Below, piece by piece: positions 31,294 through 64,000 of a DNA stretch of 64,000 nt. A model generated the notes under the pieces. That model was not told where the DNA came from. It was given only the letters and a program-made list of their open reading frames with translations, and did not search any database. Every line of letters begins with the position of its first letter. Positions within the stretch are counted from its first letter, which is position 1. A program made the translations under genes and the position numbers. Source of the stretch: an uncultured delta proteobacterium (GTDB taxonomy: Bacteria > Desulfobacterota > Binatia > UBA9968); NCBI GenBank assembly GCA_963745835.1, contig CAVUZH010000022.1, positions 192,001 to 256,000 of the forward strand, read 5' to 3'.

Positions 31294-31302
31294 ATAGGCC
31301 CG

Positions 31303-32427: not shown

Positions 32428-32459
32428 GGCGCAGCTAATTTATTTTACAGGAGCACATA

Positions 32460-34209: not shown

Positions 34210-34223
34210 TAAACAACAGGTCC

Positions 34224-34802
34224 ATGCTCGCTGAGGAAATAGGTGACGCGGAATGCGTCAAGCGCGTTCAACGGGGCGACACTCAATCCTTCGAGATTTT
34301 GGTGCGGCGACACCAAAACACGACTTTCAACCTGATTTATCGGTTTTTAGGAGACTATGATGAAGCGACCGAGACGGCCCAAGAAGTATTCCTCTCGGCG
34401 TACAAATCGATTCAGCAGTTTCGCGGCGACGCCAACTTTGCCACTTGGCTCTATCGGATCGCTTTTAACCATGCCAGCAGCCGCCGCAAAAGCTTGAACA
34501 GCAAACTACAGCGACAGGTTGCGCTGGGGGACGACCTGGTGCTGGTCGACTGCGGCGCAGATCCTGAGACCAGTGCGGAACGGAAGGAAATCCAGCAATG
34601 CGTGCAACAAGCGCTGAACAGTCTGGATGGTGACGACGCGCAAATCATTCTGCTCCGGGATCTACAAGACGTTTCCTATGAGGACATCGCCGAGACGCTT
34701 GATGTTCCCGTCGGCACTGTAAAATCGCGACTGCACCGCGCGCGACAAGCGTTGAGAACCAGACTTGCGCCCTACTTTACTCGCGATCGGAAAGTATCAT
34801 GA
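34224..34802 (+). CDS. ECF RNA polymerase sigma factor (RpoE-like)
   Basis: AQEVFLSAYKSI..FRGDANFATWLYRIAFN; SYEDIAETLDVPVGTVKSRLHRAR. Confidence 0.95.
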   Translation: MLAEEIGDAECVKRVQRGDTQSFEILVRRHQNTTFNLIYRFLGDYDEATETAQEVFLSAYKSIQQFRGDANFATWLYRIAFNHASSRRKSLNSKLQRQVALGDDLVLVDCGADPETSAERKEIQQCVQQALNSLDGDDAQIILLRDLQDVSYEDIAETLDVPVGTVKSRLHRARQALRTRLAPYFTRDRKVS

Positions 34803-36022: not shown

Positions 36023-36056
36023 AAATCTCCCGCAGTTTGCTGCGAAAGTTTGATTA

Positions 36057-36180
36057 CAGGCTGCTCAAAAAGACTCAAAGGCAAGGCGCGCGAAGTTCGA
36101 TGAGCTGAGGCGTACGCTTCAGTACGTTGAAGCGAGTCGGGCGAGCACAACGAAGCATATGAGGCTTTTTCAGCAGCCTG
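36057..36180. mobile_element. MITE-like palindromic repeat, copy 4
   Basis: CAGGCTGCTCAAAAA...TTTTTCAGCAGCCTG. Confidence 0.8.
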
Positions 36181-36255
36181 CTCGGAACATTTTCTTCCGT
36201 GCGAAGTCTAATCGAAGAAATTGCAACTCGGAAAACACCGCCTCAGGAGGAAACA

Positions 36256-40711: not shown

Positions 40712-41739
40712 AGCGATTTTGGATTTGTCAGATTTTGGATTTTGGATTGGACGACTCCAGGAGTCAGAAAATTTTCGTCTTACTCTTGCGCGCATTGCTC
40801 TTTGCGCTTTGCTCGTCCGCCGAGGCGCAGCAGCAGGCAAAGATACCTAAGATTGGCTGGCTCGGAGTCCGTCCCGCTGCGTCAGACCCGGGCGCGAGTT
40901 ATTCGGTCGAGAGTTCCGTGAACTCGGCTATGTTGAAGGCAAGAACATAATATTCGAGTATCGATCCGCTGACGATAAGCTCGAACGGCTCCCCGCCCTG
41001 GCTGATGAATTGGTCCGTCTCAAAGTTGACGTGCTCCTCGCGTCCGTGGACGCCTGCTGCCGCTAGCCGCCAAGAACGCTACCACGTACGATCCCCATCG
41101 TTTTTTAACGGCGGCTGATCCTGTTGCGCTGGGCTGGTTGATAGCCTGGCGCGGCCTGGGGGGAACATCACAGGGTTCACCAGCATTGCGCCGGTGTTAG
41201 CTGGCAAACGACTTGAGTTACTCAAGGAAACCATTCCCAAACTCTCCCGCGTTGCGGTGCTGTGGGATCCGCAGAATCCAGGCTCTGCGCAACAATGGAA
41301 AGAAAGCCAACTGCCGGCACGAGAACTGGGTTTGCAACTTCATTCCATGGAGGTAAGCAGCGCCGACGAATTCGAGAGCGCGTTCAAAGAGGCGATTAAG
41401 GCGCGTAGCGCCGCTCTCGCCGTGATGGCGAGCCCGTTTGTCTATTCTAATCAAAAACAGATCATGGACCTGGCGACAAAAATCGATTGCCGGCGATATA
41501 CCCTCGGGAAGATTTTGTCGACAGCGGCGGCTTGATGTCCTACGGAGCCGACCGGAGCCGAATCCTTCAGGCGCGCCGCGTTGATGGTCGACAAGATTTT
41601 GAAAGGTGCCAAGCCCGCCGATCTTCCCGTGGAGCAGCCGACGAAGTTCGAGTTCGTCATCAATCTGAAAGCGGCGAAGCAGATCGGTCTGACGATTCCG
41701 CCGAACGTGCTGGCGCGGGCGGATAGGGTGATCAAGTGA
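40708..41739 (+). pseudogene. ABC_sub_bind protein, copy 3, frameshifted
   Basis: Family blocks spread over ORFs 40708, 41194, 41487 and other frames. Confidence 0.8.
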
Positions 41740-41777
41740 AGCTTAGGGTCACGATTTCAGACAAGGAAGCCAGACAA

Positions 41778-42821
41778 GTGATCGAAATATTTGGATCCGT
41801 TCTTCGCCTCTCAATCGACAATCTGAAATTTAAAATCGAAAATCTAAAATGGCTGTTTTCGGAATTGCTTTTATGATCGTGGCGTATGTGGGCCTAGCTC
41901 AGGCGCAGCAGCCAGCGAAAGTCCCGCCGGATAGGATACCTATCTAATACCTCCCCTTCCGTTGCTGCAGCTCCGCGTCGAGGCTTTCCGTCAGGGTCTG
42001 CGCGAGCTTGGATACGTAGAGGGGAAAAACATTGTCATTGAGTGTCGATACTGCGGAGGGAAAACTCGATCGCCTGCCCGCGCTCGTGGCTGAGCTGGTG
42101 CGTCTCAAGGTAGACGTCATCGTCACCGGTGGTCCGACAGCAACCCGTGCTGCCAAGGAAGCGACGACAACGATTCCCATTGTCATGGCGCAGGATGGCG
42201 ATCCTGTTGCAGCGGATTCGTCGCCAGCCTGGCGCGGCCTGGCGGGAACATTACTGGGCTGTCAACTCTTGCCCCGGAGATAAGCGGAAAACGACTGGAG
42301 CTTTTGAAGGAGATCGTTCCCAGGCTCTCCCGCGTGGCCGTCCTCGGGACTTCGACCGATCCGGGCAACGCACAAATTTTAAAAGAGATGAACTGGCCGC
42401 AGGCGCGTTGCGAGTGCAGCTTCAATACCTGGACGTGCTAAGTTCCAAGGATATTGAGACTGCCTTCCGAGCCGCAAGCAAGGCGCGTGCTGACGCAGTC
42501 CTCGTGCTGGCGGGTCCTGTGCTCAATTCTCAGCGAACACAGGTTGTAGAGCTCGCGGTAAAGAGCCGGCTTCCGGCGATATACAGCTAGCCAGAATTTG
42601 TGGAAGCTGGCGGGCTTATGACCTACGGCGTGAACATGAGCGACTTGGCGCGGCGCGCCGCCACCTATGTGGATAAGATTCTGAAAGGCGCCAAGCCCGC
42701 CGATCTTCCGGTGGAGCAGCCGACGAAGTTCGAGCTAGTGATCAATCTCAAAGCAGCCAAGCAGATCGGCTTGACGATTCCGCCGAATGTGCTGGCGCGG
42801 GCGGATAGGGTGATCAAGTGA
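41778..42821 (+). pseudogene. ABC_sub_bind protein, copy 4, frameshifted with in-frame TAG at 42588
   Basis: Family blocks in ORFs 42032, 42129, 42600. Confidence 0.8.
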
Positions 42822-42872
42822 CAGAGGTCAGAGAGTCAGAGGTCAGAGATCGAGAAAGCACGACGTATAGCA

Positions 42873-43863
42873 ATGACCAAGAAAATCGATTACTCCTAGG
42901 TCTATGCTCCCTGTTCTCTTGCTCCATGCACGGCAGCCGACGCACAGCAGACAGGCAAAGTCTTCCGCATAGGTTTCCTGGATCGAAGCAATGCTTCGGG
43001 CAGCGCGCTCGTCATCGATGCGTTCCGGCAAGAGATAAGCAAGCTTGGCTGGATTGAGGGAAAGAATGTCACCATCGAGTACCGGTTTGCCGAAGGAAAA
43101 ACTGACCGGCTACCTGAACTTGCGGCGGAGCTGGTTCGCTTGAAGGTGGATCTAATTGTGGTCTCAGGGAGGGCCCGGGATTGGCGGCTAAGAAAGCTAC
43201 CACTAACATTCCAATTGTGATGATGAGCTTTCCGGACCCGTAGCTGCGGGTATGGTTGCCAGTCTGGCGCGGCCGGGAGGCAATGTCACCGGGCTCTCAA
43301 GTTTAAGTCCCGAGCTAAACACTAAAAGATTAGAGATACTTAGGGATGCAGTCCCCAAGCTTTCCCGAGTTGGACTTCTGCGGCAAGTGGGAAGCCCCGA
43401 ATCAGCAGACCTCCCATTGAAAGAGCTCAGGGCTGCGGTTCCGATACTGAACCTGAAATTAGAGGAGATCGAAACTGAACCTAATGCCAAAGGATTAGAT
43501 AGCGCCTTTCAAACCGCAAAGCAGAAGCAAGTCAATGCGATTATGCAGGGCGGTGGTCGAGGCTTTTTCGGCGAAAGAAAGCGAATCGTCGAGTTTGCCG
43601 GCAAATACCGGTTCCCGGCTATTTACAATCAGAAGGAGTTTGTCGATGCGGGCGGTCTCATGTCCTATGGGGAGGACTACAATCACCTCTACCGAATCGC
43701 GGCCGTTTACGTCGACAAGATCTTGAAAGGTGCCAAACCCGCTGATTTGCCGGTGCAGCAGGCAACGAAGTTCGAATTCATCATAAATCTCAAGGCAGCA
43801 AAACAGATTGGTCTGACGATTCCGAACCGTGTGCTGGAGCGGGCGAATCAAGTGATTCAATAA
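42873..43863 (+). pseudogene. ABC_sub_bind protein, copy 5, frameshifted 5' part
   Basis: Intact 43252-43863 half plus shifted N-terminal blocks. Confidence 0.8.
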
Positions 43864-43892
43864 GCGCGAGGTGGTGAGGCTTAAGGCGTGAG

Positions 43893-44889
43893 ATGAGAAA
43901 AGTGAATCGGGAAATCTTGACGGTAACGCTTCTCGCCATATTCTTTGGGCTTTCCTTACCCGCCTCTGCGCAGCCAAAAAAAGTTCCGCGGATTGGTTAT
44001 CTATCATCGATTGATTCAACTAGTGAGTCCACCCGTTCCGAGACGATTCGGGGGGCGCTCAATGAGCTTGGCTATGTCGAAGGACAGAACATCGCGATCG
44101 AGTACCGATATTCGGAGGGGAATACCGATCGGGCTTCCGAGCTTGCGGCCGAGCTAGTGCGTCTCAAGACCGATATCATCATCGTAGCGGGAGGAATCAT
44201 ATGGATCAGGGCCGCCAAGAATGCCACCAACACGATTCCTATCGTCATGGTGGGCGCTGGAAACGACCCTGTCGAGGCAGGCTTAATTGAAAGCCTCGCC
44301 CGTCCAGGTGGCAACATTACCGGCCTGACAAATCTTTCCGGCAGATTAGGCGGCAAGCGGCTTGAGCTGCTAAAAGAAGCCGTTCCCAAAGTTGCCCGTG
44401 TCGCGATTCTCTATGATCCAGCCACCCCAGCCAATAGAGGCGAGTTGAAAGAAGTTCAGACCGTTGCGCCGGCGCTCAAGTTGACTGTTCAGCCTTGGGA
44501 GCTAGGAGACGTGGACGGCTTTGACAAGGTATTCGCTGGACTAAACAAGGAGCGCCCCGATGGACTCCACGTGCTTGGGAGCCCGTTACTTAACAATAAC
44601 CAAAAACGAATCGCGGACTTTGCGTTGAAGAACCGATTACCCTCGATGTACCAGAACAGAGAAGCTGTAGATGCCGGCGGGCTCATGTCGTACAGCGCGG
44701 ACCTTGCGGACAGCAACCGGCGCGTCGCCACCTACGTGGACAGAATCCTGAAGGGATGCCAAGCCCGCCGATTTACCCGTCGAACAGCCGACAAAGTTCG
44801 AGCTGGTGATCAATTTAAAAACGGCAAATCAGATCAGCGTCACCATTCCCCAGAAAGTCCTGGCGCGAGCGGACAGGGTGATCAAGTAA
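43893..44889 (+). CDS. ABC_sub_bind protein, copy 6 (frameshift near 44755)
   Basis: Conserved tail [21 protein letters not shown]...[10 protein letters not shown] continues in another frame to 44889. Confidence 0.85.
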
Positions 44890-44919
44890 AACAGTGACCA
44901 GCAGTAAGAGCAGAAAAAA

Positions 44920-47921: not shown

Positions 47922-48988
47922 TTTCGAATTTCGGAATGAGGACACGAACGATAAAAGGAATTTTGACCGGGTCGCGCTCCCGCATCAATCTAAAATCCGC
48001 ATTCCGCAATCGTAAATGCGCGATCATACTATGCTCCCTGCTTGGTGCTCCGTGCTCTGCAGCCGATGCACAGCAGCAGGCAAAGCTACCTAAGATCGGC
48101 TGGCTCGGAGCGGGTCCTGCTTCGGTGCCAGGCGGCGCAAGCGAGTTATTCCTGCAACAGCTGCGTGGACTCGGCTATGTCGACGGCAAGAATGTAGCTA
48201 TCGAGTATCGGTACGCTACTAACAAGCTTGACCGGCTCCCCGACCTGGCGGATGAACTGGTTCGTGTGAAAGTCGATCTACTCGTCGCAGGCGGGGCGAA
48301 CGCCGCCCTAGCCGCCAAAAACGCAACCAAAACGATCCCTATTGTTTTCTATAATGTGGCTTCTGATCCCGTTACGCTGGGGCTGGTTGGCGGTCTGGCA
48401 CGACCGGGAGCAAACATCACCGGGTTCACTACTATCTCTGGAGTGTTGGTCGGTAAACGGTTGGAGATACTCACGCAAACGGTTCCCAACCTCGACCGCG
48501 TTGCAGTCCTGTGGGATGCACAGAATTCAGGTTCTGCGCAACAATGGAAAGAAAGCCAACTCGCTGCGCGGGAATTAGGTCTGCGGCTTCATTCTATGAA
48601 AATCAGCAGCGCCGATAAACTCGAGAGCGCGTTCCAAGCGGCGGCGAGTGCAAGCAGCGATGCGCTCACGGTCACGCAAACTCCATTGATCACTTCACGA
48701 CGAAAACACGTCGTGGACCTGGCGGCAAAAAGTCGACTGCCGGCAATGTATCATCAGGGCGATTTTGTGGAGAGCGGTGGTTTGATGTCATATGGGACTG
48801 ATCAGACAGAACCGTACAGACGTGCCGCGTTGATGGTCGACAAAATCCTCAAAGGCGCCAAGCCCGCTGATCTCCCGGTGGAGCAACCCACGAAGTTCGA
48901 GCTGATCATCAATCTGAAAACCGCGAAGCAAATCGGCGTGACCATTCCGCCGAATGTGCTGGCGCGAGCGGACCGGGTAATTAAATGA
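47918..48988 (+). CDS. ABC_sub_bind protein, copy 10
   Basis: Intact; ATGA overlap with copy 9. Confidence 0.9.
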   Translation: MISNFGMRTRTIKGILTGSRSRINLKSAFRNRKCAIILCSLLGAPCSAADAQQQAKLPKIGWLGAGPASVPGGASELFLQQLRGLGYVDGKNVAIEYRYATNKLDRLPDLADELVRVKVDLLVAGGANAALAAKNATKTIPIVFYNVASDPVTLGLVGGLARPGANITGFTTISGVLVGKRLEILTQTVPNLDRVAVLWDAQNSGSAQQWKESQLAARELGLRLHSMKISSADKLESAFQAAASASSDALTVTQTPLITSRRKHVVDLAAKSRLPAMYHQGDFVESGGLMSYGTDQTEPYRRAALMVDKILKGAKPADLPVEQPTKFELIINLKTAKQIGVTIPPNVLARADRVIK

Positions 48989-49033
48989 ATTTTGGATTTT
49001 CGAGTTGCGGATTTCCGATTGAGGACGAAGACA

Positions 49034-50080
49034 ATGAGAACATCATTGGGTGCGATGGCTTAAATTTTTCTCCCGACAATCCAAAAATCCAAAATCGAAA
49101 ATCTACAATGGCTGGGGCTTTCTGTCATCGCTTTCGTGCTTGCACTGTGTGGGGCTGTGGCTCATGCCCAGCAGCCGCTAAAGATACCGAAGATTGGTTT
49201 TCTTGGATCCGGTCCCAGTTCCCGACCGTGGCACGAATCGTTCAAGCGAGAGTTCCGGAAACTTGGTTATGTCGACGGCAAGAACGTAACCTTTATCAAT
49301 CGATTCGCCGATACCAAGTACGACCGGCTCCCCGTCCTGGCTGATGAGCTGGTGCGTCTCAAGGTCGACGTGATCATCACGCCCGGGTCCAATGACACCG
49401 GCGCCGCCAAGAACGCCACGAAAACAATCCCCATCGTTTTTCTCGGGGCAGGCTCCGATCCTGTTGTGCTTGGGCTGGTTGACAGCCTAGCGCGACCTGG
49501 AGGCAACCTTACAGGGGTCAGCAGTATAGCCTCTGAGTTGGCTGGCAAAAGACTGGAGTTGCTCAAGGAAACCGTTCCCAAGGTTAATCGGGTCGCGGTG
49601 CTGTGGAATCCGCAGAATGCGGGCTCTACGCAAGTATGGAAAGAAAGCCAACCCGCGGCAAAGGAGCTGGATCTGCAACTTCATTCCATCGCGGTAAACA
49701 GCGCCGATCAATTAGATAGCGAGTTCAAAGGGGCAGTTAAAGCGCGTAGCGGCGCTCTCGTCGTGACCGCAGGTGCGTTGCTCACTACTAATCAAGTACA
49801 AATCATCAACCTTGCCACAAAATATCGGTTGCCGGCTATCGGCGCTGGAAGAGAATTCGTAGCCAACGGCGGGTTGATGTCCTACGGATCTGACGGTATC
49901 GAACGATACCAGCGCGCGGCGCTGATGGTCGAAAAGATTTTGAAAGGCGCTAAGCCCGCCGATCTTCCGGTGGAGCAGCCCACGAAGTTCGAGCTCGTGA
50001 TCAATTTAAAGACCGCCAAGACTCTTGGCCTGATGATTCCGCAAAACGTGTTGGCACGGACGGATAGGGTCATCAAATAA
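49034..50080 (+). CDS. ABC_sub_bind protein, copy 11 (5' leader frameshifted, start uncertain)
   Basis: Open 49136-50080; leader resembles DNxKSKIENL.W of copy 12 with an extra A. Confidence 0.85.
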
Positions 50081-50131
50081 TTTCGATTTCAGTTTGGCGA
50101 TTTTCGATTAGGAGAGACAAATGAGCAAAGC

Positions 50132-51172
50132 ATGCGGGTTCTGATTTTGGAATCCGACAATCTAAAATCCAAAATCGAAAATCCAAAATGGCTGGGGCTT
50201 TGGGTGTTCATTTTGGTGCTTGTGGTGAGTGGGGCTGTGGCCCAGGCGCAGCAGTCAAAGAAAATCCCTCGGATAGGGTATCTATCGACGCTCGATCAAG
50301 CTCGTGACTCCGGACGTTTCCAAGCAATTCGACTGGGTCTCCGCGAGCTTGGCTACATAGAAGGACAGAACATCACCATCGAGTATCGATATGCGGAGGG
50401 GAAGCAAGATCGGCTTCCAGAGCTCGTGAACGAGCTGGTGCGTCTCAAGGTTGATATCGTCGTGGTAGCAGGAGGAATCATGGGGATCAGGGCGGCCAAG
50501 AATGCGACCAAGACAATTCCTATCGTTATGGGAGGCAGTGGGATCGACCCTGTCGCGGGAGGCCTAGTTGAAAGCCTTGCCCGTCCCGGCGGCAACGTTA
50601 CCGGCATTACGAACCTTACCAGAGAACTAGGCGGTAAGCGGCTGGAGTTGCTCAAAGAAGCCGTTCCCACAGTTGTTCGTATCGCGGTTCTCCACGAGTC
50701 GGCCAATCCGGGCAGTTTACGCGAGCTGAAAGACGTTCTCCCGGTAGCGGCGCGGGCGCTGGGGTTGACGGTTCGGTCTTGGGAGATACAAGGCAGTGAC
50801 GGTTTCGAGAAGATATTCGCTGCGCTCAGTAAGGATCGCCCGGATGGACTCTACGTGACCACGAGCCCGCTAATGACGGCTAACCTGAAACGGACCGTCG
50901 GCTTTGCGTTAAAGAGCCGGTTACCATCCGTAGGCAGCAATATACAGTATGTAGAGGCCGGTGGGCTCATGTCGTACGACGCGGACCCCGCGGACAGCTA
51001 CCGGCGCGTGGCCTGGTACCTGGACAAAATCCTCAAGGGCGCCAAGCCCGCCGACCTCCCGGTCGAACAGCCGTCGAAGTTCGAGCTTGTCATGAATCTC
51101 AAGACGGCCAAGCAGATCGGTCTGGCAATCCCGCCGAATGTGCTGGCGCGGGCGGATAAGGTCATTAAATAG
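50132..51172 (+). CDS. ABC_sub_bind protein, copy 12
   Basis: Intact 346 aa. Confidence 0.9.
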   Translation: MRVLILESDNLKSKIENPKWLGLWVFILVLVVSGAVAQAQQSKKIPRIGYLSTLDQARDSGRFQAIRLGLRELGYIEGQNITIEYRYAEGKQDRLPELVNELVRLKVDIVVVAGGIMGIRAAKNATKTIPIVMGGSGIDPVAGGLVESLARPGGNVTGITNLTRELGGKRLELLKEAVPTVVRIAVLHESANPGSLRELKDVLPVAARALGLTVRSWEIQGSDGFEKIFAALSKDRPDGLYVTTSPLMTANLKRTVGFALKSRLPSVGSNIQYVEAGGLMSYDADPADSYRRVAWYLDKILKGAKPADLPVEQPSKFELVMNLKTAKQIGLAIPPNVLARADKVIK

Positions 51173-51217
51173 CTCGGAGCAAGGAGCAGGGAGCTACAAA
51201 GACATGTGTGGAAACTC

Positions 51218-52207
51218 ATGAGAGGAAACTTCTACGGTCTTGCGCTTTGCGCCATGCTCTTTGCGTTTGGCCCTGGCGCGGAAGCGCAGCAGCCAACGAA
51301 AGTCCCGCGGATAGGATATCTATTGCCGGGCAACCCCGCTAGTGAGTCCACTGTTTTCGAGGCAACTCGACTGGCTCTACGCGAGCTTGGCTACATAGAA
51401 GGACAGAACATTGCCACGGAGTACCGATATGCGGAGGGGAAGCGCGATCGATTTCCTGAGCTTGCGGCCGAGCTAGTGCGTCTCAAGGTTGATGTCCTCG
51501 TGGTGGCAGGAGGGAACACACCGGTCCGGGCGGTCAAGAATGCGACCAAAACGATTCCGATCGTTATGGCGGGCGGATCCGATCCCGTCGAGGCAGGGCT
51601 GGTCGAAAGCCTCGCCCGTCCCGGCGCCAACGTCACCGGCCTTACAAACCTTGCGAGAGAACTGGGGGGGAAGCGGTTGGAGCTGCTCAAAGAAGCCGTT
51701 CCCAAACTTGCCCGTGTCGCGGTTCTCTACGATGCGGTCAATCCTTCCCATGTACGCGAGGTGAAAGAGGTTCTCCCAATGACAGCGGGTGCGCTGAAGT
51801 TGACTATTCAGCCTTGGGAGGTGCCAGACGTAGACGGTTTCGAGCGAGCATTCGCTACGTTTAAAAAGGAGCGCCCCGACGGACTGTACGTGCTCTCAGG
51901 CACACGAGTGTGGGCTATCTATAAACGGATTGCGGGCTTCGCGTTAAAGAGTCGGTTACCATCGATATACAACAACACAGAAGCTGTAGATGCTGGCGGG
52001 CTCATGTTTTATGGGGCGGACGTCGTGGACAGCTACCGTCGGGTCGCTCTCTACGTTGATAGAATTCTCAAGGGCGCTAAGCCGGCCGACCTGCCCGTGG
52101 AGCAACCGACGAAGTTCGAGCTGATCATCAATCTGAAAACCGCGAAGCAAATCGGTTTGATAATTCCGCAGTCCGTGCTCGCGCGAGCGGACAAGGTCAT
52201 TAAATAG
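51218..52207 (+). CDS. ABC_sub_bind protein, copy 13
   Basis: Intact. Confidence 0.9.
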   Translation: MRGNFYGLALCAMLFAFGPGAEAQQPTKVPRIGYLLPGNPASESTVFEATRLALRELGYIEGQNIATEYRYAEGKRDRFPELAAELVRLKVDVLVVAGGNTPVRAVKNATKTIPIVMAGGSDPVEAGLVESLARPGANVTGLTNLARELGGKRLELLKEAVPKLARVAVLYDAVNPSHVREVKEVLPMTAGALKLTIQPWEVPDVDGFERAFATFKKERPDGLYVLSGTRVWAIYKRIAGFALKSRLPSIYNNTEAVDAGGLMFYGADVVDSYRRVALYVDRILKGAKPADLPVEQPTKFELIINLKTAKQIGLIIPQSVLARADKVIK

Positions 52208-52252
52208 CTCGGAGCAAGGAGCAGCGAGCTACAAAGACATGTGTGGAAACTC

Positions 52253-53230
52253 ATGAGAAGAATCTTCTACGGTCTTGCGCTTTGCGCCATGCTCTGTGCG
52301 CTTAGCTTTCCAGTTGAGGCGCAGCAGCCGAAGAAAGTGCCGCGGATCGGATTTGTCTCCGCTGGCAATCTAGATCGACCCGGAACTCGGGTCGAGGCAT
52401 TCCGTCAGGCGCTTAATGAGATTGGTTATACGGAGGGGAAAAACATTCTGGTTGAGTATCGCCACATTAGCGGCCGAACCGATCAAATCCCACGGCTCGT
52501 TACCGAACTTGTGCAACAGAAAGTTGATGTGCTTGTCGTTAGAGCCCAACCATCGATCCGCGCGGCCAAGCAGGCCACCAAGACGATCCCCATTGTTATG
52601 GTGACAACTCAGGATCCAGTGGCGGCCGGATTCATCAACAGCTTGGCTAAGCCCGGTGGAAATATTACGGGGGTAACCACGCTCCAGCGAGAGCTAAGTG
52701 GAAAACGGCTGGAATTGTTAAAGGAGGTGCTCCCGGGAATATCGCGTGTCGCTGCTCTTATGAATGCGACCTCTATCAATGACTTCAAAATGTATGAGGC
52801 GCCTGCGCGCCATCTAAAGATACAGCTTCAATCGGTCGGGGTGCGTGGCCCTAATCCGGATCTAGAGGACGCATTCCAAGCTGCAGGAAGAGCGCGCGCT
52901 GGCGCGATCATCACGATTAGCAATGCTGTGCTTAATCCCCAGGCGGAGAAGATTGCCGAGCTTGCCATAAAGAACCGGCTGCCTTCCGTAAGTGAGCAAA
53001 GCGATTACGTCGAAGCCGGTGGTCTGATGTCGTATTCAGCGGACGAAGCTGCGAGTTACAAACGCGCTGCCATCTATGTGGACAAGATCCTGAAGGGAGC
53101 CAAGCCAGCCGATCTACCCGTTGAGCAGGCGACCGAGTTTGAGTTGGTAATCAATCTGAATACGGCAAAGCAGATTGGTCTGACGATTCCGCCCAACGTG
53201 CTGGCACGGGCGGACCGGGTGATCAAATAG
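52253..53230 (+). CDS. ABC_sub_bind protein, copy 14
   Basis: Intact; leader nearly identical to copy 13. Confidence 0.9.
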   Translation: MRRIFYGLALCAMLCALSFPVEAQQPKKVPRIGFVSAGNLDRPGTRVEAFRQALNEIGYTEGKNILVEYRHISGRTDQIPRLVTELVQQKVDVLVVRAQPSIRAAKQATKTIPIVMVTTQDPVAAGFINSLAKPGGNITGVTTLQRELSGKRLELLKEVLPGISRVAALMNATSINDFKMYEAPARHLKIQLQSVGVRGPNPDLEDAFQAAGRARAGAIITISNAVLNPQAEKIAELAIKNRLPSVSEQSDYVEAGGLMSYSADEAASYKRAAIYVDKILKGAKPADLPVEQATEFELVINLNTAKQIGLTIPPNVLARADRVIK

Positions 53231-53273: not shown

Positions 53274-54269
53274 ATGATAACAAAATTCTTTTGTCTTACC
53301 CTTAGCACTTTGCTCTTTGCACTTAGCTGTCCGGTCGAGGCGCAGCAGTCGAAGAAAATCCCTCGGATAGGTTATCTATCGCCGCTCGATCAAAGTCGCG
53401 AGTCCACCCGTGCCGGGGTAATTCGCCACGCGCTGCGCGAGCTTGGCTACATAGAAGGACAGAACATCGCCATCGAGTACCGATATGCAGAGGGGAAGCG
53501 TGATCGGTTCCCTGAACTCGCGGCCGAGTTGGTGCGTCTTAAAGTTGATGTCATCGTGGCAGCAGGAGGAGAGCCGTTGATCCGGTCTGCCAAGAATGCG
53601 ACCAAGACGATTCCCATTGTGATGACGGGCTCCGGGCCAGATCCTGTCGAGGCGGGCCTTATTGAAAACCTTGCCCGTCCAGGCGGCAACGTCACTGGGC
53701 TTACCTATCTTTCCACTGAATTAGGCGGTAAGCGGCTGGAGCTGCTCAAAGAAGCGTTAGCCAAATTGACTCATGTCGCGGTTCTCTACGATCCGGCCAC
53801 TCCGGGCACTGCACGCGAGGTCAAAGAAGACCTCCCAGTTGCAGCGCGCGCGCTGGGTTTGACGGTTCGCTCTTGGGAGGTACGAGACGCGGTCGGTTTG
53901 GAGAAAGTATTTGCTGCGCTAACCAAGGAGCGTCCGGATGGACTCTATGTGCCGCTCACGGGAGCACTAATGCGTGCTAACGGAAAACGGATTGCGGGAT
54001 TTGCGTTAAAGAGCCGGTTACCGTCCCTGTACGGCGACAAAGAAGGTGTGAACGCCGGTGGGCTCATGTACTATGGCGCGGACCTCGCGGACAGCTACCG
54101 GCGCGTCGCCACCTACGTGGACAAAATTTTAAAGGGCGCAAAGCCTGCCGATCTGCCGGTGGAGCAGCCCACAAAGTTCGAGTTGGTGATCAATCTCAAA
54201 ACGGCGAAGCAGATCGGCCTGACGATTCCGCCGAGCGTGCTGGCGAGAGCGGACAAGGTGATTAGATGA
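53274..54269 (+). CDS. ABC_sub_bind protein, copy 15
   Basis: Intact 331 aa. Confidence 0.9.
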   Translation: MITKFFCLTLSTLLFALSCPVEAQQSKKIPRIGYLSPLDQSRESTRAGVIRHALRELGYIEGQNIAIEYRYAEGKRDRFPELAAELVRLKVDVIVAAGGEPLIRSAKNATKTIPIVMTGSGPDPVEAGLIENLARPGGNVTGLTYLSTELGGKRLELLKEALAKLTHVAVLYDPATPGTAREVKEDLPVAARALGLTVRSWEVRDAVGLEKVFAALTKERPDGLYVPLTGALMRANGKRIAGFALKSRLPSLYGDKEGVNAGGLMYYGADLADSYRRVATYVDKILKGAKPADLPVEQPTKFELVINLKTAKQIGLTIPPSVLARADKVIR

Positions 54270-54301
54270 AAGGCGAGTCGAATAGCTTGATGGCTTCAGC
54301 T

Positions 54302-54760
54302 TCAAAGAAAGTCGGAAAGGACCAGAACTTGAACCGCGTCGAGCCTTTTCACTCGCTTATCGTTGGTCAAAAACAATGTGGCTTCCTCCTGAATAGCAGC
54401 GGCGAGTTGCAGAGCGTCGGGCAGGCGGATCGTGTAGCGTGCCCGAATGAGCGCCGCCGTTTCCGCCAGCTTCTCGTCAATCGGCGCCATGGAAAGCGAA
54501 GAGAAAGACTTGAGCGTGAATTTGATTTCGTCGGCGAGAGCAAAGTTTTTGTCGGCGAAGGGTTTTGTCAGAATCTCGGCCAATGTCACCGACGAGGTAA
54601 CGGCGCGCAGAGCATTATTTTCCAGCAAGGTAAATACCGGATCGAGGAGATCGGCGTAGGGAGCAATATCCTCGATATAATAAATGAACGGCGCGGTATC
54701 GAGGCCGATGATCTTGTGCTTTTCGACGGCGCGGCGAAGCTTAAGCGCGTTGCCATTCAT
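54302..54760 (-). CDS. vapC: PIN-domain VapC toxin
   Basis: IGLDTAPFIY, SSVTLAE, IRLPDALQLAAA, FLTND acidic PIN motifs. Confidence 0.88.
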   Translation of the reverse strand: MNGNALKLRRAVEKHKIIGLDTAPFIYYIEDIAPYADLLDPVFTLLENNALRAVTSSVTLAEILTKPFADKNFALADEIKFTLKSFSSLSMAPIDEKLAETAALIRARYTIRLPDALQLAAAIQEEATLFLTNDKRVKRLDAVQVLVLSDFL

Positions 54761-54989
54761 CGCGCAGCTTCTCGATATAGGCGTCGATCTTGGCTCGACT
54801 GCCCCAGGTCCCTTTGCCGAGACCGCGCAGGCGAGCCGTCGGGCTCTTGGGTTTAGGCCGGAGGACGATTTTGTCGCCTTCGACGACAGCGGCCAACCAA
54901 TCACCGGGCTTTAGTCCCAAGCTCTTACGGATCGCTTTGGAGATAACGATTTGTGACTTTTGATTGAGTTTTAGTACCGATTCCATCAT
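54741..54989 (-). CDS. AbrB/MazE/SpoVT-family antitoxin
   Basis: KSQIVISKAIRKSLGLKPGD..VEGDKIVLRP; overlaps the PIN gene start. Confidence 0.88.
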   Translation of the reverse strand: MMESVLKLNQKSQIVISKAIRKSLGLKPGDWLAAVVEGDKIVLRPKPKSPTARLRGLGKGTWGSRAKIDAYIEKLRDEWQRA

Positions 54990-55062
54990 GGTACTCCAAA
55001 AACCATACTTAGGGTAAATTTAACAGGCTTGGGTTACACCGTCAATCGAGCATTGTGATCAG

Positions 55063-56116
55063 ATGACAGCAGTCAGCGGTCAGCTATCAGCGGTCAGCAG
55101 GTTACCGGAGACAAAACCCGTAACGAAATCTATTCTTGTCTGGCTCCTGGCAACTATCTTTCTGCCGACTGCTCTTGTCGTCGAGGCGCAGCAGCCGAAG
55201 AAGGTCTTCCGGATAGGGTATCTATCGTCGTTCGATCCAGCTAGTCGACTCCCATGGCACCGAGGCAATTCGGTTGGCTCTGCGCGAGCGTGGCTACATC
55301 GAAGGACAGAACATCGTCTTCGAATACCGATATGCGGAGGGGAAGCTCGATCGGTTCCCTGAACTTGTGGCCGAGTTGGTGCGCCTCAAGGTTGATATCA
55401 TCGTGATAGCAGGAGGCAACGGGACGGTGCGGGCCGCCAAGAACGCGACCCAGACGATTCCCATCGTTATGGCGGGGATTCCAGCCGATCCTGTCGAGGC
55501 AGGTCTTGTTGAAAGCCTTGGCCGTCCCGGGGGAAACGTCACCGGGCCTACCTATCTTTCTACTGAATTAGGCGGTAAGCGGCTAGAACTGCTCAAAGAA
55601 GCGTTAGCCAAATTAACTCATGTCGCGGTTCTCTACGATCCCGCCACTCCGGGCACTGCACGCGAGGTCAAAGAAGACCTCCCAGTTGCAGCGCGCGCGT
55701 TGGGTTTGACGGTTCGGTCTTGGGAGGTACGAGACGCGGTCGGTTTGGAGAAGGTATTCGCTGCGCTAAGCAAGGAGCGTCCCGACGGAATCTATGTGCC
55801 TCTCACGGGCGCGCTGATGCGCGCCAACGGAAAACGGATCGCCGATTTTGCATTAAAGAGCCGGCTGCCGTCCCTCTACGGCGATAAAGAGGGTGTGAAT
55901 GCCGGTGGGCTCATCTACTATGGGGCCGACCTCGTGGACAGCTACCGGCGCATGGCCACCTACGTAGACAGAATTTTGAAGGGAGCTAAGGCCGCCGATC
56001 TGCCCGTCGAGCAGCCGACGAAGTTCGAGTTGGTGATCAATTTCAAGACGGCGAAGCAGCTCGGCCTCACTATTCCCCCTCAGTTACTGGCGCGCGCGGA
56101 CAAGGTCCTTAAATGA
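55063..56116 (+). CDS. ABC_sub_bind protein, copy 16 (frameshift near 55250)
   Basis: ORFs 55063 and 55274 join; C-terminal part nearly identical to copy 15. Confidence 0.85.
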
Positions 56117-57198: not shown

Positions 57199-57625
57199 CC
57201 ATCACAGAACCTAAAGCTTGCCGGCTTGCGACCCTGAGCAGCATGAACGCAGTCTCCTTGAACCTGAGGCCCGACTACCGGCTGAGGAACAGCTAAGACT
57301 GAAGCTGCGGCGACTCATCCAATCAAAAGACATCGTAGAGTTGGCGGGGCCAGCATTGACATTGTTGACAACATGGTTACGTTCAGACCTCCCCGAGAGT
57401 TACGACAACCATCTTTCGCTGATTGAGTCCATTTTCCACATCAGGTGCGAGGCACCAGCGACGAAATCATCGAGTTAGGCTCACCGATAGATCTTACCAT
57501 TCAGACGACGCATGCCCGGTGTTTGCGTTTAGTGCTTTATCTCTTATCGGCCACTAGGTAACGCGATTTTTACAGGAATAAGAGGAGTCCGGTCTTAGAC
57601 GCTATTGGAGGAACAAGAAGGTTCT

Positions 57626-57895
57626 ATGAAAAAGCTACTTATTCTGGCGGCTCTGCTCGTTTTGTTGCCGATTATCAGCGATGCGGCTGAGGTTCGCGGA
57701 GATAACCGAAAGGACGTAGCGCCTAGCCCAATCGTTGAACCCAAAGAGCGGAGAAATACAAGCATAACCTACGAGTCGATTCAACCAGACGCTATCCCTA
57801 ACAATATTGGACTACTCGGCCCGTCAAGGCAGGAAATTCACGATTTCCTTTATCCGACGCTCAACGATGGGAAAGTTGTAATACCAACCAACTAG
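57626..57895 (+). CDS. Small secreted hypothetical protein
   Basis: MKKLLILAALLVLLPIISDA signal peptide. Confidence 0.55.
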   Translation: MKKLLILAALLVLLPIISDAAEVRGDNRKDVAPSPIVEPKERRNTSITYESIQPDAIPNNIGLLGPSRQEIHDFLYPTLNDGKVVIPTN

Positions 57896-58283
57896 AATGG
57901 CGCGCAGGCCCGGGGAATCGCCACTAGGCCCAAATGACAAGACGCCAGTTTCAGATGAGGGCATGTACTTACGTTACCAAAAAAAAGGTAGCCGAAAATA
58001 TAACCCGTGGGTTCTACGTACTGAATGTTTTCTTATCAGGTAAAAAGGTTGTTGTTTAGTTCAGTATTGGACAGCAATCCCTCTACGGGAGATGCAAGGG
58101 TGAGCAAATCGACCCAAACGTCATACGGAAGTAGCGCTTTTCGACGTACGTTAGAGACAAAAAAGGGTCGCCCTTGAGGGCCTTCGTACCGCCAGGAGAG
58201 GTGGTTTTAAAGACCCCACCAAGGGAGGGAGGCCCCAACAGCCTAAGCGGCCACCCGAAGAATTTTGCGGTGGAAAAAACATC

Positions 58284-58490
58284 ATGATGATTGTGCTAGG
58301 TTACTTCCTTATTGCAGCAGGAGCCGTCATCGCAGCATCAGCGATCATCGGGTTTTTTCTTACTAACTTGCTGATTCTGTTGCTTCAGACGATTGATCGT
58401 TCTATCAGACTTTGCAGAGGTGCGGTCCCTGCGTTTTCTGCGCCCCATCGGCTTCTGAGAAAACTCCGTAGTTTAGAAAATCTGGCGTAA
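58284..58490 (+). CDS. Small hydrophobic membrane peptide
   Basis: 68 aa; long hydrophobic N-terminus, basic C-terminus. Confidence 0.45.
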   Translation: MMIVLGYFLIAAGAVIAASAIIGFFLTNLLILLLQTIDRSIRLCRGAVPAFSAPHRLLRKLRSLENLA

Positions 58491-58577
58491 GCGCTGCTTT
58501 AACAATCATGCCCAATTCGAGCAGCTAAGGGTGTCGCGAATAGCGGCCGGACTCTTCTCGGCGGCCGAATTAGGTGC

Positions 58578-58631
58578 GGTCTGACAATTCCGCCCAACGT
58601 TCTGGCGCGAGCGGACAGAGTGATCAAGTGA
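58578..58631 (+). repeat. Orphan 54-bp copy of the conserved binding-protein 3' tail
   Basis: Encodes [17 protein letters not shown] with no gene body upstream. Confidence 0.85.
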
Positions 58632-58757
58632 GAAGAGCCAATACTAGAAAGCCGAATTTAGGCCTCGCGCACCAAGTGAAACCATTTTCGTTTTAGTTTC
58701 GCTTTTCGATTCAAGGCTCCTGGCTGGTCAATGCATCGAGATTCTCAAAGGAAACAC

Positions 58758-60624: not shown

Positions 60625-63600
60625 ATGCCAACCACGACTAAAAAGGGCTCTAAGAGCACTAAGGAGAAACCGCGACGTGTTGTAGTAAAAGCCTCGCCGA
60701 ATAAACAAGCCCAGGCGGTCACCGAACTACGCCAGGAACTCGCCGAATCTTTGCAGCGGGAGAACGCCACCGCAAGCGAGAATGTACGGCTGGTCAAAGA
60801 ATTACAAGAACGCAGCCGTGACCTCACCGAAGCTCTGGAGCAGCAAACCGCAACCGGCGAGGTGCTACGGGTCATCGCTACCTCACCTACCGAGCTTCAA
60901 CCGGTCCTAGACACGCTGATCGCGAACGCGGTGAAGCTATCCGGCGCGACCAAGGGTCACATTCGACAGTACGAAGGGGACTCTCTCGTAGTGGTCGCGC
61001 ATTTTGGCGAGAGCGCCGAAGAGATTGAGCGATATCACAGCATGCCTGTTCCGGTAGTCCCCGGAGGACGGGCCGCCGCGCGATGGTGGAGAAGAAACCA
61101 GTCCATGTTCTTGACGTTCAAACCGAGGCAAATGTTTCTCAGGTGGCTCGTCAGACCGGGGAGCGGACCAGGTTAGTTGTGCCGCTGCTGCGCGAAGACG
61201 CGGCGATCGGAGTTATCACGATTTGGCGCGATCTTGTTGAGCCCTTTACCGAACGACAAATCGAGCTGGTAAAGACCTTTGCCGACCAGGCGGTGATCGC
61301 CATAGAGAATGTCCGTCTGTTTCAAGAACTTTCTGAATCGTTGGAGCGGCAAACAGCGACGAGTGAAATCCTCGGTGTGATCGCCAGCTCGCCGACGGAT
61401 ATTCAGCCTGTGCTAAATGCCGTGGCGGAAAATGCTGCCAAACTCTGTGATGCGACCGACGCAATTATTTGGCGTGTGAATGGGTCTGAACTCAGACGAG
61501 CGGCCAAACACGGCGCGTTCTCTTCAGGAGCAATTGGAGAAGCATGGCCGTTGAGTCGAGGTCGCGGCTGGGTTCCTGCGCGAGCCGTGCTCGATCGCGA
61601 GACCATTCATATCCATGATCTCCTTGCAGAGGTTGAGACTGAATTCCCCGAATCCAAGAGAACACAAGAAAGCACCGGTGCACGAACCGTACTTGTTACA
61701 CCCTTGCTTAGAGAAGGTGTATCGATAGGCGCTATTTTCATCCGCCGATCTGAAGTTCGTCCATTCTCGGAGAAGCAAGTCGCGCTTCTGAAAACCTTCG
61801 CCGATCAGGCCGTCATCGCAATCGAGAATGTACGCTTGTTCAAGGAGACTCGGGAGCGCAACGCGGAACTGCGAGAGGCTCTGGAGCATCAGACCGCAAC
61901 GGCCGAGGTGCTCGGCATCATCAGCCGCTCGCCTACAGACGTGCAGCCGGTGCTCGACGCGATCGTCGAGAGCGCAGCACGGGTTTGTGGGATCGATGAT
62001 GTGCTGCTGCGACTCAGCGAGGGCGACACTATGGTTTCGCGGGCTCATTTTGGTTCCATACCGATTAGCCGCGTCGAGATCAGTATAGATGAGCCACAGA
62101 ATCGCTGGATGCGAGAGCATGGTACGCTCCACATTCCCGACGCTCCACGCGCAGAACGATTTTCCAATGTTGGGTATCGTCGGCAGTTTCGCGCACCTTC
62201 TTGTCAGTTCCCCTTCGACAGCAGGGGGAACTCATTGGAATACTGAACGCGCGTCGTACGGAGGTGCGCCCGTTCACCCGGCACAGATCTAAACTCCTTG
62301 AGACCTTTGCTGATCAGGCCGTGATCGCGATCGAGAACGTGCGGCTATTCCAAGAACTCAAGGAAGCATTGGAACAGCAGACGGCGACGAGCGAAATCCT
62401 GGGCGTGATCGCTAGCTCGCCGACGATATTCAACTCGAAGCCCGCAATCGCGACCTCACCGAAGCCTTAGAGCAGCAGACCGCAACGAGCGAGGTATTGC
62501 GAGTGATTGCCGGTTCCCCGGCGGAACTACAGTCGGTGCTCGACGCCGTCACCGAGAGCGCAGTACGGCTCGCGAGCGCCACGCGAGGTCACATACGTCA
62601 ATACGATGGTGAGTTTCTTCGCCTGGTGGCTTCCTACGGGGAGTCACCCGAACAACTGGCTGTATTCCAGGCTCCCGTCCGCCCTCGTGCCGAGAGCAGG
62701 TCTGGTCGTGCGTTCCTCGAGCGAAGGCCGATCCATGATCTGGATGCCCAAGTTGAACGTCACCCGATGGCGGCTCAGACCGGGGCTCGAACGACCCTGG
62801 CGGTGCCGCTCTTGCGCGAAGATACCCCGATCGGAGTCTTTACGATTTGGCGCGACCTTGTTCAGCCGTTTACTGACCGGCAAATCGAACTGGTGAAGAC
62901 TTTCGCCGATCAAGCAGTCGTCGCCATCGAAAATGTGCGGCTGTTCCAAGAATTGCAGCAGCGCAATCGCGACCTCACCGAGGCTCTGGAGCAACAAACA
63001 GCAACGAGCGAAATTCTGGCCGTGATTGCTAGTTCGCCGACCGACATCCAGCCGGTGCTTGATACCGTGATTGCAAATGCGGTGACACTTGCAGGTGCGA
63101 AGCATGGTCACATCCGTCAGCTCGACGGCGAGTTCCTGCGTTTGGTCGCCCACTATAACGAGAGCCCGGAGTACATAGCCCACTTACAAGCCAATCCTGT
63201 GCGTGTTGCACAGAGTCTGGCAGGCCGTGCTTTTCTTGAGGGAAAACCAGTCCAGCACCTTGCGGGCACGGAGGAACCAGGTCCCAGCTAGCGCGTGGTC
63301 GGGGCTGGGAGATCGAACCCTGCTGGCCGTACCACTGCTGAAAAAGGGAACCCCCATCGGAAACATCCTGATTTGGCGCGATGTTGTTGAGCCATTCACT
63401 GAACGGCAGATCGAGTTGGTTAAGACCTTCGCCGACCAAGCGGTCATTGCGATCGAAAACGTGCGGCTGTTCCAAGAGCTCGAGGAGCGCAACGCCGAAT
63501 TGCGCGAAGCCCTGGAGCATCAGACGGCAACGGCCGAGGTGCTCGGCATCATCAGCCGCTCGCCTACGGACGTCCAGCCGGTCCTCGACGCTATCGTCGA

Positions 63601-64000
63601 GAGTGCCGCGCGGGTTTGTGGGATCGATGACGTGGTGCTGCGACTCCAGGAGCATAACAATTTGGTTTCGCGGGCCCATTTTGGTTCCATACCCCTACAC
63701 GCACCGCGTCGAAATCAGTATTGATGAGCCACATTATCGCTGGGTGCGCGAGCATGGCACGCTCCATGTTCCCGACGTTCGCGCGCGCAGAATGATTTTC
63801 CAACGTTCGGTGCCGTCGGAGGCTTCCGTACCTTCTTGGCCGCTCCCCTTCGTCAGCAGGGGCAACTCATTGGAACGCTGAACGCACGTCGCATCGAGGT
63901 GCGCCCCTTCACCCCGGCGCAGATCAAACTTCTCGAAACCTTCGCCGATCAGGCGGTCATCGCAATCGAGAACGTACGGCTGTTCCAAGAACTAAAGGAG
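60625..64000 (+). CDS. Tandem multi-GAF-domain sensor protein (frameshifted, incomplete at window end)
   Basis: At least six repeats of [26 protein letters not shown]...[30 protein letters not shown]. Confidence 0.88.

Follow-up and report, generated by a model that had tools for sequence, protein, structure and literature searches.

A VapBC-type toxin–antitoxin cassette in a tandem array of PF04392 genes, with a putative trimmed gene tail at its right border

The cassette between copies 15 and 16 of the array

The window, that is, the whole stretch of 64,000 nucleotides analysed here, carries an array of 18 copies of a PF04392 (ABC_sub_bind) solute-binding-protein gene, a family represented by ~113 paralogs per genome. 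Between copies 15 and 16 lies a small opposite-strand cassette, described in an earlier sequence-only reading as an AbrB and PIN gene pair flanked by a 12-bp direct repeat. The features of the locus are listed below.

53274..54269, plus strand: ABC_sub_bind copy 15, an intact ORF ending ADKVIR* (PF04392, E 7.9e-43)
53723..53922 (= 55570-55769), plus strand: conversion tract of copies 15 and 16, 96-97% identical
54258..54269, plus strand: tail 12-mer of copy 15, GTGATTAGATGA, containing AGGTGAT (complementary to the 16S 3' end) and then ATGA
54270..54301, unstranded: spacer of 32 bp between the copy 15 stop and the PIN stop, which travels with the cassette
54302..54760, minus strand: vapC-like PIN toxin gene, 152 aa (PF01850, E 1.1e-14)
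54741..54989, minus strand: vapB-like AbrB/MazE antitoxin gene (PF04014, E 2.6e-8; TIGR01439, E 7.6e-10)
55017..55045, minus strand: sigma-70-like vapBC promoter-like site (TTGACG, 17 nt, TG-TAAATT)
55046..55054, unstranded: 9 nt from the -35 box to the relic, junction of a lineage-specific 101-bp deletion (pairwise alignment with L065, one 101-bp gap)
55055..55066, plus strand: right 12-mer, GTGATCAGATGA, the end of an ABC gene tail that has lost its 5' part
55063..56116, plus strand: ABC_sub_bind copy 16, in two frames in the assembly (55063-55362 and 55274-56116)
58572..58631, plus strand: second free-standing ABC tail relic (tblastn, residues 313-331; tail word at 58620)

The domain searches bore out the gene pair: the PIN product scored 55.5 bits against PF01850 (cut-off 23.6), and the AbrB product matched both of its models. 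The AbrB gene lies upstream of the PIN gene in the same operon and overlaps its start by 20 nt. Its own start codon is likely the one at 54986, since the homologues begin with MEN or MES. Among 10 homologues of the PIN protein, D21, D115 and D134 were invariant and E62 was nearly so; we take these to be the acidic residues of the active site. A single promoter-like site was found in the interval 54200-55200 (shuffle mean 0.4), and both of its hexamers, including the -35 box at 55040-55045, are kept in relatives. The antitoxin-to-toxin order, the overlapping ORFs, both Pfam domains, the conserved acidic PIN residues and the sigma-70-like promoter directly upstream are all shared with type II VapBC systems, and we describe the locus as a putative module of this kind, with an AbrB-fold antitoxin and a PIN RNase toxin. 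The PIN protein is distant from the solved VapCs (the best match was 7by2, E 0.02 over 55 residues), and it matched no toxin model of NCBIfam.

Both toxin–antitoxin (TA) genes are under purifying selection. Compared with homologues, dN/dS was 0.11-0.17 for the PIN gene and 0.07-0.19 for the AbrB gene, L027 being left out of the latter comparison as the gene is broken there. The values of dS against nine homologues ranged from 0.46 to 1.6, and because divergence from relatives is as high as about 0.5-1.6, the arrival of the TA is judged from these sequences to be old.

Copies 15 and 16 were indeed the closest of the 153 pairs formed by the 18 copies, with a DNA identity of 84% vs 77% for the next pair. 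Their likeness is a mosaic: outside the conversion tract it is 73-90% along the remaining body and only 21-65% towards the 5' ends. Copy 15 also has an 85% identical paralog in a different array (C24:387528-388450), and in the related loci L065 and L074 the two genes flanking the TA are only 63-64% alike. A conversion patch accounts for the closeness of copies 15 and 16; a common origin at insertion does not. Both copies share an exact run of 57 bp (ending at 53852 and 55699), and because of it a deletion between them by homologous recombination, which would remove the TA as proposed earlier, is mechanistically possible. The two frames of copy 16 result from one extra base, a +1 frameshift near 55246 in the assembly, which is absent in contigs of two public runs (one contig of X1 and two of X5).

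The right-hand 12-mer and the tails in relatives

The two 12-mers lie at the cassette borders as first described. They match at 11 of 12 positions, and a repeat search extended the match to 13 of 15 bases. The host 16S 3' end reads ...GGATCACCTCCTTTCT; the right 12-mer retains GTGATC, complementary to the anti-SD sequence, together with the copy 16 ATG at 55063. The earlier assignment of this ATG to copy 16 proved right: it opens the ORF carrying the signal peptide and is the sole start codon upstream of that peptide. Stop–start overlaps of the ATGA/GTGA type that are open into the next copy occur at 24 of 67 family junctions in the genome. The terminal Arg codon common to both 12-mers was considered as a derived character and dropped, as 33 of the 94 family tails of the genome end in VIR*.

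According to the earlier proposal, the TA entered precisely where the stop of copy 15 meets the start of copy 16, the 12 bp of the tail were duplicated, and the cassette was then kept as a stabiliser of the array, as in a superintegron. The position of the 11/12 repeat exactly at the borders, as well as the closeness of the flanking copies with their 57-bp run, favours such an insertion. What stands against it is the right border in relatives, where 69-450 bp of an ABC gene tail are held. The loci L021, L022, L023 and L026 have 69 bp of this tail, G020/L024 has ~450 bp, and the congener G004 has 115 bp (ending VIK*) directly past the promoter edge. In the nearest relatives (L065, L066, L074, L075 and L121, with a PIN 89% identical), 101 bp are followed by GTGATTCGATGA and a leader resembling that of copy 16. 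This 101-bp stretch is a degenerate ABC-gene tail that begins after the same promoter edge, and exactly these 101 bp are missing from the window and from L064 (99%), the gap having been placed by a pairwise alignment with cheap gap extension (the MAFFT placement was poor). The tails of relatives end in the same word, namely GTGATCAGATGA in L026, GTCATCAGATGA in L023 and GTGATTCGATGA in L065. Since relatives keep the tail that the window has lost, the alignments identify the right 12-mer as the last remnant of a 5'-truncated paralog.

The cassette ends were also searched for marks of mobile elements. No terminal inverted repeats were seen, and the 25 longest pairs of a simple repeat search, which is not an attC model, included no attC-type inverted repeat in the vicinity of 54270 and 55054. 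A scan of 15 ORFs flanking the array on either side detected no transposase and no integron integrase with attI. Because the right 12-mer represents the end of a longer relic, there is no target-site duplication of the kind that a transposable element would leave. One part of the earlier proposal that stands is that the TA forms a discrete block with the span first given; the 12-bp repeat as a target duplication with a clean junction does not. We consider this insertion, with the TA retained for stabilisation, improbable.

It could also be supposed that the right 12-mer resembles a gene tail by chance and has no historical link to it. The word class does occur at about chance frequency: 12-mers ending in ATGA were found 21 times, within one mismatch, in the 7.28-Mb genome (14.5 Mb counting both strands). 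With so many occurrences the word itself is not rare; it is the place that is not due to chance. The 12-mer stands where relatives have a recognisable tail ending in the same word, and it supplies the only start codon available to the signal peptide of copy 16. A coincidental match is thus left with a negligible probability.

Tail relics are also present in spacers that are free of TA genes: at C3:1409605-1409649, in L023 and L026, and in the window at 58572-58631, where the relic follows a 1.5-kb stretch of small ORFs that matched no Pfam family and precedes copy 18. For this reason, a relic beside the cassette is not a specific feature of it.

DNA of the TA was found in 5 of 40 relatives. 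TA-less alleles with a single clean GTGATYAGATGA junction, which the insertion proposal had predicted, were looked for among the relatives and the contigs of public runs, and none was found; such an empty site is not expected, because relatives carry the tail at the right border. The orthologous array of G006 (90-92% identical where syntenic; 80% complete) has no copy of this TA, which speaks against that proposal. Its synteny with the window breaks off precisely at the copy 14 tail (53226), with other genes downstream, and it was not accepted as a clean empty site. The DNA downstream of the window locus was not syntenic in five congeners. In G009, one co-ortholog of copies 15 and 16 is followed directly by another copy without the TA; with 81-83% identity it was too distant to count as a TA-less allele. 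The joints 53225>56129 (X5, X7) and 54262>55182 (X11), with 20 matching letters and 88% likeness, were rejected, as they look like other organisms or paralogs. No reliable hybrid from a deletion between copies 15 and 16 appeared in the public runs. Since the cassette was not seen in an excised, circular or empty-site form, we infer its movement from context alone.

Residence in arrays and exchange of neighbours

This VapBC lineage resides in PF04392 arrays. Among 58 close metagenome homologues, the PIN side faces an ABC tail in 32 of 40 evaluable loci; the other eight have an N-terminal ABC fragment (three) or nothing (five). On the AbrB side, the 47 evaluable loci have a tail relic (12), the start of a copy (19) or nothing (16). 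On assembled genome contigs, a tail is faced by 8 of 10 close loci. For 22 distant PIN homologues, an ABC gene was on the PIN side in none of the 14 evaluable loci. No close relatives of the TA were found on plasmids (best 40%), and phages gave no match. The conserved block of the cassette starts at the stop codon of the ABC gene on the left and reaches slightly past the vapBC -35 box; the spacer within it has homologous counterparts in L021-L023 and, interrupted by inserts, in L024 and L026-L029.

The PIN-side genes lie in different paralog clades of the tree. Their monophyly was rejected, as constraining six of them together costs 333.7 lnL (AU p 1.4e-6), in a quick tree with SH-aLRT only and with the AU group chosen after the tree was seen. 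A 2.07-kb stretch comprising the right gene, relic, TA and spacer is 95.6% identical between the loci L065 and L074, and their left genes are different. Over the first ~50 bp of the left tail the identity is still 98-100%; it then falls to ~55%. This step is read as the footprint of a crossover ~50 bp inside the tail between near-identical loci. Because the neighbours switch at this point, the conserved tail is read as a possible handle for recombination.

Cassettes of HicA and Phd-PIN types are present in other arrays of the same genome (G000) and are also bracketed by tail relics. HicA homologues adjoin ABC genes in 6 of 7 relatives and Phd-PIN homologues in 3 of 6. Neither ORF neighbouring the HicA gene on C3 matched Pfam or NCBIfam as a HicB partner. 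The enrichment of TA genes suggested for such arrays was confirmed in this genome: 3 of the 29 toxins counted lie in arrays, which make up 1.39% of the genome (P≈0.008), or 2 of 28 with the window left out (P 0.039). These census counts are lower bounds, because the PF01850 genome scan missed a PIN on C19 that hmmscan finds. The arrays hold one TA in 18, one in 21, one in 41 and none in 10 copies.

The enrichment agrees with a stabilising role of the TA, and such cassettes have been reported to stabilise the superintegron of Vibrio (PMC11551772). Against such a role, a single TA among 18 copies can guard only where a deletion takes in the TA itself, and five of these 18 copies are already frameshifted. 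An array-stabilising function of the TA is a plausible, putative one.

We propose, with a probability of roughly 70%, that the locus is an array-resident VapBC addiction module, the right-hand tail relic of which was trimmed to 12 bp, and that the tail serves as a handle. The left array gene converges on the PIN gene, and the conserved block ends at the -35 box of the module's own promoter. Past this promoter, a second array gene had left its 3' tail, the 5' part being lost, and a further 101-bp deletion in the window genome cut this tail to 12 bp. Their role as ribosome-binding site and start codon for copy 16 would have preserved these 12 bp; in the other direction, deletions past the vapBC promoter would unleash the toxin. 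The tail doubles as the translation-initiation region of the following gene and may offer homology through which host recombination gives the cassette new paralog partners or a new place. The module would persist since its loss would be lethal and, as a by-product, would block deletions spanning it.

A wider version of this proposal covers all three cassette types (VapBC, HicA-type and Phd-PIN). In it, the conserved 3' tail of this massively amplified gene family would be a portable homology arm. The intact tail on one side and the relic on the other would act as an attachment site that needs no recombinase: RecA-type host recombination would loop the cassette out and re-place it behind any of ~100 paralogs, within or between genomes, and addiction would prevent its loss and police array deletions. 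We offer this extension tentatively, as an idea with the odds somewhat against it.

Still less probable, in our view, is a single old landing of the TA in which the cassette never moves and the tail is no handle: the next copy was truncated by deletion, and unequal crossing-over, conversion and deletion then turned over the array as usual. This account fits the presence of the cassette in arrays of several genera at high dS, and also a relic whose length differs by lineage while one end is fixed at the promoter. The end of G006 synteny at a gene tail points the same way, in that tails would be general break points of arrays. The account leaves unexplained why three unrelated TA families have the same tail bracketing.

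If the cassette stayed in place while its neighbours turned over, the resulting pictures would be no different from those left by movement of the cassette. The stationary account otherwise differs from the proposed addiction module only in who moves, and the L065/L074 crossover fits both.

Comparison with known systems and significance

The superintegron of Vibrio cholerae contains 19 TA modules in 179 cassettes, and these modules are said to keep the array stable through post-segregational killing (PMC11551772). The two systems share TA modules scattered in a long array of repeated units at a density of the same order. They differ in that the cassette ends here showed no attC-like structure and the ORFs scanned nearby no integrase, in that the repeated unit here is a host coding gene and not a recombination site, and in that the flanking repeats are gene tails, a substrate for general homologous recombination.

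In Neisseria, minimal mobile elements (Saunders and Snyder 2002, cited after PMC3787668) have variable content between conserved flanks and lack a recombinase of their own, and their exchange is explained by homologous recombination in the flanks. Differing content between conserved flanks is likewise seen in L065 vs L074 and in the window vs G006. In contrast to those elements, the flank here is not a unique conserved gene but a 3' tail common to the ~113 paralogs, which therefore provides many landing places within one genome.

Literature searches found nothing that links TA modules with tandem arrays, paralogs, solute-binding proteins and gene conversion. The papers on PF04392/ABC_sub_bind, judged by title and abstract opening, included none on arrays.

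For annotation, the locus is a warning that short direct repeats flanking small cassettes in arrays may be gene stumps and not insertion scars. If the tail does act as a handle, selfish addiction modules would be able to colonise chromosomal paralog arrays and persist in them without a recombinase of their own. They would exploit a stretch that the host has to keep unchanged, since it encodes the C-terminus of one gene and at the same time forms the ribosome-binding site for the following one. The idea of TA modules freezing arrays, known from superintegrons, would then extend to ordinary tandem gene families, and would offer a testable case of how gene-family expansions in large soil genomes may escape recombinational collapse.

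The toxin–antitoxin pair and its array

The window (G000:C22:192001-256000) carries a plus-strand tandem array (38668-59729) of 18 genes for PF04392 (ABC_sub_bind) solute-binding proteins, numbered here as copies 1-18. This family has about 113 copies in the source genome (G000), whose four large arrays amount to 101,038 bp, or 1.39% of the genome. Copies 3, 4, 5, 6 and 16 occupy more than one reading frame. Copies 3-6 (40780-44897) are split over two or three frames each and are thus frameshifted pseudogenes or assembly errors; fragmented copies were likewise seen in the arrays of contigs C19 (9 of 41) and C3 (8 of 21). In the region 3' of the array (60625-64000), GAF-domain ORFs recur with nearly the same motifs and overlap in different frames; they probably represent a long sensor gene or a series of genes, either disrupted or wrongly assembled.

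The sequence-only reading had placed a PIN/AbrB pair between two 12-mers, GTGATTAGATGA at 54258-54269 and GTGATCAGATGA at 55055-55066, and both its coordinates and its description were correct.

Features at the cassette
53274-54269, plus strand: copy 15, ABC_sub_bind, ending GTGATTAGATGA at 54258-54269
54302-54760, minus strand: PIN gene (PF01850, E 1.1e-14)
54741-54989, minus strand: AbrB/MazE gene (PF04014, E 2.6e-8; TIGR01439, E 7.6e-10)

The two genes overlap by 20 nt and, judged by their sequences, look like a functional VapBC-type toxin–antitoxin (TA) module. In 10 homologues, PIN residues D21, D115 and D134 do not vary and E62 hardly varies. Compared with nine homologues, dN/dS was 0.11-0.17 for PIN and 0.07-0.19 for AbrB (the latter without locus L027, where the antitoxin gene is broken), at dS of 0.46-1.6. 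The only promoter-like site 5' of the module consists of TTGACG at 55045-55040, a 17-nt spacer and TG-TAAATT ending at 55017; shuffled sequence gave a mean of 0.4 such sites, and both hexamers are kept in relatives. The module is single copy in G000 at the DNA level. No close plasmid relatives were found (best match 40%), the phages searched gave no match, and the PIN protein showed only distant kinship to solved VapCs.

Origin of the second 12-mer

The ATG at 55063, inside GTGATCAGATGA, is the only start codon 5' of the signal peptide of copy 16. The corresponding border was compared in the congener G004 and in ten close loci from genome contigs (PIN 71-86% identical), labelled as Candidatus Binatia, uncultured delta proteobacterium or Syntrophobacteraceae MAGs. 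In G004, the promoter edge is as in the window (...GTCAATCGAGAATGC) and is followed by 115 bp of coding tail ending GTGATCAAGTGA and then by the next array gene. Four loci (L021, L022, L023 and L026) have an AbrB-side relic of 69 bp (profile positions 310-332), the last bases of which in L026 are exactly GTGATCAGATGA. Relics were also detected in L028 and, weakly, in L029, where the alignment shows them to be longer and degenerate; L027 has the same by alignment only, and L024 (genome G020) has an ABC fragment of about 450 bp. On the other side, the unpublished genome G018 (L006) has an ABC tail and then the PIN 3' end after 143 bp.

Five metagenome loci (L065, L066, L074, L075 and L121; PIN 89%) have the promoter almost base-for-base as in the window. 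In these loci, ...CGTCAATCGAGCAT is followed by a degenerate tail of 101 bp, by GTGATTCGATGA and then by the leader AAGTAGTCAGTAGTCAGTGGTCAG, which is homologous to the start of copy 16. Pairwise alignment with the window gives a single gap, of 101 bp, and no other difference. Locus L064 (99%) is in the same state as the window. As relatives carry the 101 bp of tail gapped in the window, the second 12-mer is the end of a 5'-truncated paralog, cut back by a lineage-specific deletion, and not a target-site duplication. No terminal inverted repeats were found at the cassette ends, and the 15 neighbouring ORFs scanned included neither an integrase nor a transposase.

The extent of trimming can be related to the signals nearby. 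The family tail, ...AAGGTGATC/T A(A/G)(A/G) TGA, holds AGGTGAT(C), which is complementary to the 16S rRNA end of G000 (...GGATCACCTCCTTTCT), with a few bases between it and the following ATG or GTG, which overlaps the stop codon. At 24 of 67 junctions in G000, the frame from this overlapping start stays open into the next copy. The relic in the window retains GTGATC and the ATG, and the vapBC -35 box is 9 nt from it; in all relatives, the conserved block ends 2-9 nt past this box regardless of relic length. We infer that deletions are tolerated as long as they spare the antitoxin promoter and the region where the next gene starts; the window shows the relic fully trimmed.

Likeness of copies 15 and 16

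Copies 15 and 16 are indeed the closest pair in the array (84% vs 77% for the runner-up among 153 pairs compared). Their likeness is a mosaic: it reaches 96-97% over 53723-53922 / 55570-55769, including a 57-bp exact run, and is 73-90% in the rest of the body and 21-65% at the 5' ends. The high stretch is a patch of gene conversion and does not stem from recent duplication of the whole gene. Copy 15 also has a paralog at 85% identity in another array (C24:387528-388450).

In the assembly, one extra base near 55246 (within 55240-55250) splits copy 16 into two frames; without it, copy 16 would be one 350-codon gene. Since the base is missing from a 1290-bp contig of sequencing run X1 (spanning 54255-55545) and from two contigs of run X5, the frameshift could be a private mutation or an error of the assembly. 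The order tail, TA, 12-mer, copy 16 is confirmed by the X1 contig, although X1 may be the source sample. The leader of copy 16 (55067-55100) consists of repeated CAG(C/T)GGTCAG-like units. A GGTCAGAG run that resembles it comes behind the tail at 42810 (after 42821), and AGTAGTCAGT units occupy the place of this leader in L065.

Changing neighbours and other inserts

The metagenome scan kept 80 loci of 464 relatives found, and 58 of the 80 had a PIN at least 63% identical. On the PIN side (40 of the 58 evaluable, with a flank of 250 nt or more; tails counted within 300 nt), a convergent ABC tail was present in 32/40, an ABC N-terminal fragment in 3/40 and nothing in 5/40. The AbrB side of 47 evaluable loci showed a recognisable relic in 12, the start of a copy in 19, among which short or decayed relics like those of the window and L065 would escape the profile, and nothing in 16. 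Among distant homologues (38-55%, n=22), the PIN side had no ABC gene in any of the 14 evaluable loci.

In a quick maximum-likelihood tree of 43 array genes, from which copies read in pieces were excluded, the PIN-side neighbours were spread over different well-supported clades, each with window copies (for example, L026 with copy 18; L027 and L029 with copies 7, 10 and 11; L022 with copies 1 and 9). A single clade for six PIN-side neighbours, a group chosen after the tree was seen, was 333.7 log-likelihood units worse (AU p 1.4e-6). These comparisons place the TA lineage in ABC gene arrays, with changing partners.

Over 2.07 kb that take in the right gene, relic, TA and spacer, loci L065 and L074 share 95.6% identity. 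It stays at 98-100% into the first ~50 bp of the left tail, then falls to 68-80% and to about 55%, and the left genes are 63% alike. This step would be the footprint of a crossover within the tail. The congener G006 matches the window at 90-92% identity over 27424-37707 and 48775-53226, and the two diverge exactly at the tail of copy 14. In G006, an ABC N-terminal half (~150 residues) runs in frame into a C-terminal GAF/histidine-kinase-like part (L044:1069-2190, contig C10), suggesting a deletion junction where that array ends.

The intra-array gaps above 330 bp in G000 numbered 15, and three held TA genes; the remaining ones held an S1/P1 nuclease, TPR proteins, multicopper-oxidase fragments or nothing recognisable.

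Inserts in the arrays of G000
Window (C22 array): VapBC pair, bracketed by ABC tail pieces
C3:1410872-1411427 (L007, C3 array): HicA toxin gene, bracketed by ABC tail pieces
C19:403441-404185 (L015, C19 array): Phd/YefM-PIN pair, bracketed by ABC tail pieces
C3:1426254-1427024 (L009): S1/P1 nuclease gene, intact (E 2.4e-57), non-TA insert
C24:389390-391754 (L020): multicopper-oxidase fragments in several frames, non-TA insert
Window 57605-57895: small ORF with signal-peptide-like start, gap of copies 17/18
Window 58284-58490: small hydrophobic ORF, same gap
Window 58572-58631: free ABC tail relic within the array

No HicB partner could be assigned to the C3 HicA, and an inverted ABC fragment (profile 251-290) adjoins the Phd/YefM-PIN pair. 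The 1.5-kb gap of copies 17/18 (57199-58730) has small ORFs, for which no Pfam family was found, followed by the relic, a small-cassette-plus-stump pattern without TA.

Genome scans of G000 gave at least 16 PIN (the C19 PIN gene was missed), 4 HicA, 7 ParE/RelE and 2 PemK toxin genes. Three of 29 lie in arrays vs 0.40 expected (Poisson P 0.008), or 2/28 vs 0.31 (P 0.039) without the window's array, which prompted the test. This enrichment is suggestive only, because TA genes form clusters elsewhere as well and the choice of toxin families was in part post hoc. Homologues of the HicA cassette adjoin ABC genes in 6/7 relatives, and those of Phd-PIN in 3/6 (L057, L058 and L062, not L059, L060 and L061; the weak, unmapped match L063 is left out). 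Selection of the TA for stabilising the array, as in superintegrons, had been proposed from the sequence and is plausible, but a single TA among 18 copies guards only deletions spanning it, five of these copies are already broken, and the orthologous array of G006 lacks a copy of this TA.

The cassette idea was half right: the borders coincide with gene tails, but the repeat is the stump of a gene, and the module arrived long ago. A stationary cassette, around which the neighbours turn over, explains most of the same data and differs from a cassette handled by its tail only in who moves. In the tail-handle reading, which is the favoured one, the TA module would persist by addiction, and the conserved tail would be a handle by which general recombination re-partners or moves the cassette. 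This would match minimal mobile elements in mechanism (PMC3787668) and superintegron TA cassettes in consequence (PMC11551772).
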